A stretch of DNA of 64,000 nucleotides from the NCBI RefSeq assembly GCF_056746865.1, contig NZ_CM163382.1; one strand, written 5' to 3'. Numbering within the stretch: the first letter of the stretch is position 1; the number at the start of each line of letters is the position of its first letter. The notes beneath the pieces are model-generated. The model searched no databases. It was not told where the DNA came from and saw nothing but the letters and a program-made list of their open reading frames with translations. The position numbers and the translations under genes are program-made. This document shows positions 51,525-52,475 of this stretch, in pieces.

Positions 51525-51823
51525 GGGCAAATCCAGGTGGTTGTTGCTTTCCCGTTGCTGAAAAAGAAAACGCCAGACTGTTAGCCGGGTATCAGTTATC
51601 TGGAGAAATTTTTAAATACCTCACAATTCAGGCGGTTGACTGTTGTCTGGTTTGCGGGGAGTTTGTTAAAAGAAACTGGCATGGTGAATCCCCCTGTGCG
51701 GAGGGGCAATCAGCAACTGGTGTTTTGTCACCGACCCTTATCCTTTCTGTGCGGGTTCAGGTGCTGATACTGAACTCACCGGGAGGCACCCGGCATCATG
51801 CAATGGCACATAGCGCCACTCTC

Positions 51824-51859
51824 CAGCCCCTCTCCGGAGGGGCTGTTTATATTGATTTT
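51824..51859 (+). terminator. candidate intrinsic terminator
   Basis: 9-bp stem cagcccctc / gaggggctg with loop tccg, followed by a T-rich run. Confidence 0.5.
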
Positions 51860-51879
51860 GTCAGATGTGAGTAAACTCC

Positions 51880-52215
51880 TTATGGACTTTGTTGTTTTAG
51901 TCCATAAGGACATATTTGCAGAGTGCAACGGTTATTAAAGCATTCATTCAATACGTTATCTGTATTTGTAGGACATTCCTGGCTGTTTTTGATTAAATTC
52001 CAGAATGTTTTATTGAATGGTACTACGTTGTAAATGGTTAAAGGTAGCACTTTGTTATTGAGCATGATACCTGTGTGAGTCAGTGTAAATATACTTTCAG
52101 GAGGTAAGAAAGCATCCGATTGATACCAGATTATTAATTTTATTTTACTCCATATGACTGAAAAAGATATTCCGCATGATGGCTGGATAACTGTATCAAT
52201 CACAATCCACTTCAT
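51880..52215 (-). CDS. hypothetical protein encoded antisense to late transcription in an AT-rich segment
   Basis: 111-aa ORF; local GC markedly lower than flanks; 12-bp-stem hairpin (51877-51910) at its 3' end. Confidence 0.4.
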
Positions 52216-52475
52216 TTAGTTTCCTTGTTTATGTCTTGCTGGTGATGTTCTGAAAAGTATAAATGATATTTTTGAATGTAAACCATAGAGCAGAATTATT
52301 TTTCTGATGTTGTTTATTGTTTATTTAAATGCAGGGTGGTTTATATCTCGTCTTGTAGTTTATCCATGCATATCTGCTTGATGATGAGGTTTTTATTTAA
52401 GGTATGGTTTTGTGTTTTTTCTGTATTACATGTCAGGTATTTTAAAGAATTATTTTTCAGATGGTGGAAAGAACC

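Follow-up and report, generated by a model that had tools for sequence, protein, structure and literature searches.

A 111-codon open reading frame (ORF) lying antisense to the late genes of a lambdoid prophage is almost certainly iraL, a moron whose product belongs to the IraM family of RssB anti-adaptors. The ORF starts with ATG and occupies positions 51880–52215 on the minus strand of the window, by which we mean the whole 64,000-nucleotide stretch of DNA that was analyzed; its presence there, opposite to late transcription, agrees with an initial annotation of this DNA. Sequence, profile, fold and dN/dS all bear on the assignment. Given that function has been shown for a near-identical gene of uropathogenic E. 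coli CFT073, this copy, which is a real gene, appears to be functional, and it is not new: iraL was named and characterized in 2014, and the exact sequence found here is annotated in RefSeq.

Identity, fold and conservation of the antisense ORF

The closest characterized relative of the ORF product is CFT073 IraL (locus C_RS06710), with which it shares 110 of 111 residues; the sole substitution, L59 here for V59 in CFT073, is conservative. The CFT073 gene was named iraL by Hryckowian et al. (mBio 2014; PMC4045071), and the allele class is delimited by at least 95% nucleotide identity to it over the whole coding region (PMC4045071). At 99.1% over 321 nt, the ORF falls within this class, and its nucleotide identity to K-12 iraM and to the variant carried by Stx2 phages is 70.1% and 76.9%, respectively. 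Identity to K-12 IraM is 62% at the amino acid level. Membership in the wider family is equally clear from profile and structure searches: NCBIfam NF007393 (IraM) matches residues 1–110 of the product at 161.4 bits (curated cut-off 121; model positions 1–113/114), the IraM chain of PDB entry 8TWD is matched at E = 1.2e-31, and identical DNA in RefSeq bears the label "anti-adapter protein IraM." The product had initially been described as having no recognizable family, a description that these matches overturn. A Pfam scan of the product returned no match even at E <= 10, whereas PF11183 (PmrD) is precomputed for its database homologues, a discrepancy that probably reflects a difference between Pfam versions. 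The corresponding PHROGs family, phrog_4407, is listed under "unknown function." We found no further IraM-family copy within the window.

An AF2 model, built on an alignment of 13 family members, places seven strands (residues 2–66) and a helix (69–77) within residues 1–78 at pLDDT 70–84, a predicted arrangement that corresponds to an antiparallel PmrD-like beta-barrel with a C-terminal helix. IraM itself has been described as a PmrD-like beta-barrel (PMC10844676). The best PDB match to the model by Foldseek is IraM (8twd_A; TM 0.87, rmsd 1.5 A), followed by three PmrD structures (4HN7, 2JSO and 2RQX; TM 0.67–0.73). Residues 80–111 have pLDDT below 50, leaving the tail unmodelled; the Cys-rich C-terminal tail of IraM was likewise removed for crystallography (PMC10844676). 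Within this tail, cysteines C81, C92, C97 and C102 are invariant, being kept in 13 sequences down to 55% identity. The hydrophobic N-terminus remarked on in the initial annotation is, according to the model, no signal or membrane segment, and would instead form beta-strands 1–3 of a cytoplasmic barrel, contributing to its core and to the surface that contacts RssB.

The crystal structure of IraM bound to RssB defines 14 contact residues in clusters I–III (PMC10844676), and 10 of these are identical in the ORF product. Cluster I, which contacts the RssB N-terminal domain (NTD), is fully retained (5/5: I4, I6, W22, K26 and I42). Clusters II and III, which contact the C-terminal domain (CTD) and linker, retain 5/9 residues, the differences being T13S, L75I, H63N and I64V. 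As far as sequence can indicate, these differences fit the NTD-only binding reported for IraL (PMC4045071).

Comparison of coding sequences with family variants shows a real gene under strong purifying selection (dN/dS 0.10–0.19). Pairing iraL with the Stx2-phage variant gives a ratio of 0.11, and pairing it with K-12 iraM one of 0.19; dS is above 1 and hence saturated. Among 5,426 complete E. coli genomes, 1,424 contain at least 80% of the 925-bp segment in which the gene lies, and iraL-type coding sequences (at least 95% identity) were found in 1,414 records; the gene is therefore seldom found apart from these flanks. Any IraM-family gene at all occurs in 4,757 of the 5,426 genomes. The position of iraL is the same in phage vB_EcoS-640R1 and in the potB prophage of CFT073.

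Gene neighborhood, promoter and convergent 3' ends

The segment begins at 51536, the right junction of an IS2 insertion (50205–51535, +; 1331 bp; ORFs 50251–50661 and 50619–51524) bounded by 5-bp target duplications, GGTGG, at 50200–50204 and 51536–51540. We mapped the junctions against the empty site of E. coli ATCC 25922 (L001:5001–5005). In that strain, a small ORF that IS2 splits here is intact (RefSeq CDS L001:4975–5049, "DUF3927 family protein"), and coordinates transferred from it place the 3' part of this DUF3927-family ORF at 51536–51584 (+). The 925-bp segment recurs at 100% identity in ATCC 25922 and in numerous other isolates. On the other side of iraL, an AT-rich divergent intergenic region (52249–52460; about 29% GC) separates it from a NanS-p-type esterase gene (52476–54437, +), the first late gene after the module, whose longest ORF opens at 52461 and whose RefSeq-equivalent start is 52476. 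Its product is a 658-aa protein that combines DUF1737, a SASA sialate-O-acetylesterase domain and DUF6645. These flanks, IS2 upstream and the esterase gene downstream, are as initially described. The low GC content that had been attributed to about 900 bp applies to the roughly 600 bp from 51860 to 52460, at 31.9% against a window average of 50.2% (33.6% in the iraL coding sequence and 28.6% in the intergenic DNA upstream of it), but not to the first 324 bp (51536–51859), which at 50.3% equal that average.

The 5' end of iraL mRNA was determined in CFT073 by 5' RACE as ACATCACCAGCAAGGCATAAACAAGGAAACCA (PMC4045071). This 32-mer maps once in the window, at 52248–52217 (-) with 2 mismatches and 0 matches expected by chance, which sets the transcription start at 52248 and yields a 33-nt 5' UTR (52216–52248, -) containing the Shine-Dalgarno-like sequence AAGGAAA. 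Immediately upstream lies a sigma-70 promoter (52256–52282, -), within which we placed by inspection a -10 hexamer, TATACT (52256–52261; positions -13 to -8), and a -35-like hexamer, TTTACA (52277–52282), separated by a 15-nt spacer. The -10/-35 region is identical to that of CFT073, and the 100 bp upstream of the start differ by 1 base, at -2; counting the 5' UTR together with this position, 3 bases differ. The RACE match and the CFT073-identical upstream DNA together place an iraL-class promoter with a mapped start at this site, and in CFT073 a fragment of iraL spanning -100 to +33 drives complementing expression (PMC4045071). A consensus promoter scan proposed sites at 52323–52295 and 52164–52137 (-); we gave these no weight, as the scan missed the experimentally mapped promoter.

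Two hallmarks of a moron are thus present: a promoter of its own, recognized by identity to an experimentally mapped one and by antisense orientation, and a base composition in 51860–52460 (32% GC) that deviates from that of the window (50%). The initial proposal of autonomously expressed lysogenic-conversion cargo, which had been tied to transcription and conservation of the ORF, is accordingly supported in kind. Both properties are documented, transcription for the 99%-identical CFT073 allele, from which expression in the present lysogen may be extrapolated. Orientation and composition had sufficed for the moron to be recognized correctly from sequence alone.

Converging on iraL is a gene for the small RNA STnc100 (51650–51854, +), which matches the full Rfam model RF02076 (positions 1–206) at 133.5 bits (gathering score 47; E = 4.8e-30). 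The family also occurs in CFT073 and in Stx2 phage WGPS6, and EcOnc27, an Hfq-binding sRNA detected experimentally downstream of stx2B, overlaps STnc100 (PMC12711010). The 3' ends of STnc100 and iraL lie about 25 nt apart, and each is associated with a hairpin. The first, at 51824–51859 (+), has a G+C-rich 9-bp stem, a 4-nt loop and a T-rich tail; the stem-loop itself spans 51824–51845, with the tail running to about 51859, and folds at -20.8 kcal/mol (z = -3.9). Its stem forms the 3' end of the STnc100 match. The T-run is found on the plus strand only, the minus-strand tail being GGAGAGUGG, which has no U-run. Because the T-run is confined to the plus strand and sits at the STnc100 3' end, we assign this intrinsic terminator to STnc100. 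The second hairpin, in a computed fold at 51877–51910 (-), has a 12-bp stem and a 10-nt loop and covers the last codons and stop of iraL (-17.5 kcal/mol, z = -5.4; no fold this stable among 200 shuffles). The CPYGL codons recur in inverted form as its 3' arm, which encodes an IraL-specific extension, QQSP. The extension is absent from K-12 IraM and from the Stx2-phage variant; a 28-nt indel removes the hairpin from the latter, and K-12 iraM also has none.

Both stems detected in the initial annotation are therefore real, in that they fold, but they do not bound the ORF. They lie together at its 3' end, one overlapping the last 31 nt including the stop and the other 35–56 nt beyond. Nor is the proposal that iraL has terminators of its own supported, the 9-bp terminator, with its T-run on the plus strand, being that of STnc100. 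We found no canonical intrinsic terminator for iraL on the minus strand, where the 3' end of the gene offers only the 12-bp hairpin followed by UUUACUCAC. It is possible that this hairpin acts as a weak terminator or as a stabilizer of the mRNA 3' end, and iraL mRNA probably ends at, or is stabilized by, the 12-bp hairpin and the back of the STnc100 terminator stem.

We considered whether STnc100 is the pR'-tR' leader and rejected this assignment: a separate tR'-like terminator follows Q at about 49809–49839 (-18.2 kcal/mol), and in Stx2 phages STnc100 is located downstream of stx2B and does not adjoin Q. No STnc100 was found next to K-12 iraM; the sRNA–iraX linkage is therefore specific to the prophage-borne variants.

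Relation to stx and to Stx2 phages

The initial annotation placed the ORF in the slot that stx occupies in Stx phages. The ORF does lie between Q/tR' and the NanS-p-type esterase gene, but stx2AB is found upstream of STnc100 and coexists with an IraM-family gene, so that the two neither share one position nor exclude each other. In Stx2a_WGPS6 the order is a late antiterminator; tRNA-Ile, tRNA-Arg and tRNA-Arg; stx2A and stx2B; STnc100 (154 bits); an antisense IraM-family ORF; and the esterase gene. The IraM-family ORF of this phage is intact, at 107 aa, and carries no annotation in that record. CFT073 and phage vB_EcoS-640R1 have the same order without stx. The stx genes are thus inserted upstream of the STnc100/iraX module, with which they coexist, and iraL is no replacement for them.

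By tblastn, the IraM family was detected in 46 of 50,697 phage records. Four of these, all non-Stx phages, are of the IraL type (97% identity). Another 41, comprising Stx2c phages and Stx2a phages (such as the WGPS series and F349), encode a variant 71–73% identical to IraL, and many of these ORFs are unannotated; the single remaining record is a Salmonella phage fragment with a weak partial match (33% identity). Many Stx2c/Stx2a phage records therefore contain, directly downstream of stx2B, an intact IraM-family gene that has gone unannotated, which matters for studies of RpoS-dependent stress tolerance in O157:H7. A literature search on the Stx-phage IraM variant yielded nothing specific within the searchable library, and the gene, which Stx2c-type phages carry some 300 bp downstream from stx2B, is apparently functionally unstudied. 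Together these comparisons fix the map of the hot spot: Q/tR' comes first, followed by tRNAs and stx where these are present, STnc100, the antisense IraM-family gene and finally the genes for the esterase and for lysis.

Proposed function, alternatives and known systems

Work on CFT073 provides the framework for a proposed function. When iraL is deleted from that strain, log-phase cells contain less sigma-S and its half-life drops by half, from about 5 to 2.5 min; K-12 given iraL together with 100 bp of native upstream sequence has more sigma-S (PMC4045071). IraL binds the N-terminal (receiver) domain of RssB, as judged by two-hybrid and co-purification, and acts in log-phase cells free of stress, its gene being transcribed from a sigma-70 promoter (PMC4045071). 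Its paralogue IraM, as the crystal structure shows, packs against the alpha4-beta5-alpha5 face of the RssB receiver domain, remodels the interdomain linker and excludes sigma-S (PMC10844676). For the copy studied here, RssB binding and sigma-S stabilization are predicted by transfer from the 99%-identical CFT073 protein. Transcription would initiate at 52248 (-) from the gene's own constitutive sigma-70 promoter, antisense to the phage late operon; with such a promoter in this orientation, iraL should be expressed in the lysogen during exponential growth. IraL would then bind the receiver domain of the adaptor RssB, and RssB, blocked in this way, could not hand sigma-S (RpoS) to ClpXP, so that log-phase sigma-S would gain in both stability and abundance. 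By expressing iraL constitutively, the prophage may in this manner pre-arm the host with the general stress response, and this benefit could explain why roughly one in four E. coli genomes retains the cargo.

A broader reading, which we put forward tentatively and hold to be unlikely on present evidence, treats the convergent STnc100 and iraL genes as one mobile RpoS-tuning cassette situated right behind the stx insertion point. It would have three corollaries. Stx2c-type phages would encode, some 300 bp downstream from stx2B, a third anti-adaptor of the IraM family, which would raise sigma-S in O157:H7 lysogens and with it their stress or acid tolerance. Once the phage is induced, late transcription antiterminated by Q would read past the STnc100 terminator, antisense to the gene, and switch the gene off, coupling prophage state to the host general stress response. 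Finally, the Cys4 motif (C81, C92, C97 and C102) would sense metal or redox state and so control the stability of the anti-adaptor.

Membership in the same family as K-12 iraM raises the question of whether iraL might be, like it, a stress-induced anti-adaptor switched by PhoP/PhoQ at low Mg2+ rather than a constitutive log-phase factor. A PhoP-box-like direct repeat, TGTTTATTGTTTATTTA (1 mismatch), is in fact present at 52311–52327, 63–79 bp upstream of the start, and the Stx2-phage variant has a similar repeat at the aligned position. However, 229 of 500 shuffles of this 29% GC DNA match the PhoP box at least as well, the DNA upstream of iraL bears no relation to the promoter of K-12 iraM, and CFT073 IraL is active in unstressed log phase from its sigma-70 promoter (PMC4045071); we consider PhoP control improbable. 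Less probable again is that this copy is silent or decaying, whether through H-NS silencing of AT-rich DNA or disabling by the nearby IS2. The DNA is indeed AT-rich (29–34% GC), IS2 lies about 345 bp beyond the iraL 3' end, and neighboring sequence decays in relatives, the esterase gene being frameshifted in ATCC 25922 and truncated in CFT073. Yet the ORF is uninterrupted and shows strong purifying selection, its promoter is identical to one that is expressed in CFT073, and the same 925 bp is found 100% identical in many unrelated isolates; IS2, moreover, is downstream of iraL and past STnc100, leaving gene and promoter untouched.

We assign almost no probability to the remaining alternative, closest to the initial annotation, in which the ORF encodes a novel, family-less conversion factor with a secreted or membrane N-terminus that replaces stx in the toxin slot. 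Its antisense, low-GC setting between Q/tR' and the esterase gene and the "unknown function" listing of phrog_4407 would accord with such a factor. Family membership is nevertheless unambiguous (NF007393, 8TWD, CFT073 IraL and the fold match), the N-terminus is modeled as beta-strands 1–3 of a cytoplasmic beta-barrel contacting RssB, and in 41 Stx2c/Stx2a phage records stx2AB coexists with an IraM-family gene, with stx upstream of STnc100.

The nearest of the known systems is CFT073 iraL, which has the same promoter, start site, 12-bp hairpin and QQSP tail and occupies the same prophage position: Q, then STnc100 and iraL in convergent orientation, a DUF1737/esterase gene and a holin gene. The window differs in having IS2 upstream of STnc100, an intact esterase gene and a Q of the DUF1133/Q-like type, without a tRNA cluster. 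With IraM of K-12 (YcgW/ElbA), the Mg2+-starvation anti-adaptor, the product shares its family, the PmrD-like fold, all RssB-NTD contact residues and the four C-terminal cysteines. K-12 iraM is distinguished by an unrelated promoter, PhoP-dependent in K-12, by a location adjoining icd/e14 without an STnc100 neighbor, by a length of 107 aa, and by the lack of QQSP and the hairpin. K-12 IraM contacts both RssB domains, whereas IraL contacts the NTD only (PMC4045071), and the two proteins differ at H63, I64, T13 and L75 of IraM.

The Stx2c-type phages (2851, 1717, Stx2a_WGPS2/4/6/8 and F349) likewise have an antisense IraM-family ORF between STnc100 and nanS-p. It is intact at 107 aa, 74% identical to iraL in amino acid and 77% in nucleotide sequence, with an aligned -10 of TATAAT; it differs in lying about 300 bp downstream of stx2B, in lacking the 3' hairpin and in being unannotated in most records. 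PmrD shares with IraL a rare fold and its nature as a small binder of a response-regulator receiver domain, although identity is only about 15% and the target is PmrA~P, not RssB. The outcomes also diverge, PmrD protecting its target from dephosphorylation and IraL blocking the adaptor. Among lambdoid-phage morons (lambda bor and lom; stx), iraL conforms to the pattern of a self-promoted, compositionally deviant gene set among late-operon genes and expressed from the prophage. It departs from that pattern in being antisense to the late operon, in having no clear terminator of its own, and in encoding a product that acts on the control of host proteolysis instead of serving as a cell-surface protein or toxin.

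Naming of the IraL family

The databases conflict on what to call the family of IraL, the IraM-family RssB anti-adaptor encoded by the 111-aa ORF at 51880–52215 (minus strand). A Pfam scan of this ORF returned no match even at E ≤ 10; its homologues nonetheless carry a precomputed match to PF11183 (PmrD). In PHROGs, the ORF matches phrog_4407 (243 bits), a family labelled "unknown function", and the NCBIfam name for the same family is IraM.

The cysteine tail and the 3′ hairpin of iraL

In an alignment of 13 family members, four C-terminal cysteines of IraL (C81, C92, C97, and C102) are invariant down to 55% identity and follow the pattern ECP-x9-C-x4-C-x4-CPYG. 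This tail (residues 81–111; 51880–51975, minus strand) has an AlphaFold pLDDT below 50, and it had been removed beforehand from the IraM protein whose crystal structure was determined (PMC10844676). The four cysteines may constitute a metal- or redox-binding motif.

A 12-bp hairpin (51877–51910) spans the stop codon of iraL and has the appearance of a stretch of CPYGL codons duplicated in inverted orientation; such a duplication would account for the IraL-specific C-terminal extension QQSP. The hairpin is absent from K-12 iraM and from the Stx2-phage variant, from which iraL differs here by a 28-nt indel.

Surroundings of iraL and the IS2 insertion

A full-length STnc100 sRNA gene (51650–51854, plus strand), with a candidate −35 element TTGACT at 51636–51641, converges on iraL, their 3′ ends being ~25 nt apart. 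The Hfq-binding sRNA EcOnc27, encoded downstream of stx2B, overlaps the STnc100 family (PMC12711010). Upstream of iraL is a PhoP-box-like direct repeat with one mismatch (TGTTTATTGTTTATTTA; 52311–52327, plus strand), and a similar repeat occupies the aligned position in the Stx2-phage variant; in this AT-rich DNA the repeat is not above chance, with 229 of 500 shuffles at least as good.

A 1,331-bp IS2 (50200–51540 including the GGTGG target duplications) splits a small DUF3927-family ORF, with the Q/tR′ region on one side and STnc100 and the late genes on the other. About 75 nt downstream of a Q-like antiterminator gene (49171–49737) stands a strong tR′-like intrinsic terminator, GAGCCCGC-TTTTT-GCGGGTTTTTTT (49809–49839, plus strand; −18.2 kcal/mol), which a simple terminator scan missed. 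The insertion could have a polar effect on the late genes and render the prophage lysis-defective; ATCC 25922 and CFT073 have no copy at the corresponding site. The NanS-p-type esterase gene (52461–54437, plus strand; DUF1737, SASA, and DUF6645; 658 aa) is intact. In ATCC 25922 the orthologue carries a frameshift, and in CFT073 and phage vB_EcoS-640R1 all that is left of it is a DUF1737 stub.

Relatives in Stx2 phages and K-12

The Stx2-converting phage Stx2a_WGPS6 carries an intact 107-aa IraM-family ORF (L004:5252–5575, corresponding to AP012539.1 24974–25297, minus strand), 74% identical to IraL and 65% to K-12 IraM. Flanked by STnc100 and nanS-p, it lies antisense ~300 bp downstream of stx2B. 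The ORF recurs in 40 further Stx2c/Stx2a phage records and lacks annotation in most GenBank phage records; phages 933W and Sp5 were absent from the matches of the tblastn search of phage records.

K-12 iraM has been described as "on the e14 prophage" (PMC4045071). The locus (L002:4414–5004, corresponding to NC_000913.3 1211413–1212003) falls just beyond the annotated right end of cryptic e14 (1211412), past the icdC pseudogene. Adjoining iraM, ycgX (DUF1398) resembles ydfO, a late-region gene of the potB prophage in CFT073, a likeness that suggests that the K-12 iraM region is a remnant of an older prophage.
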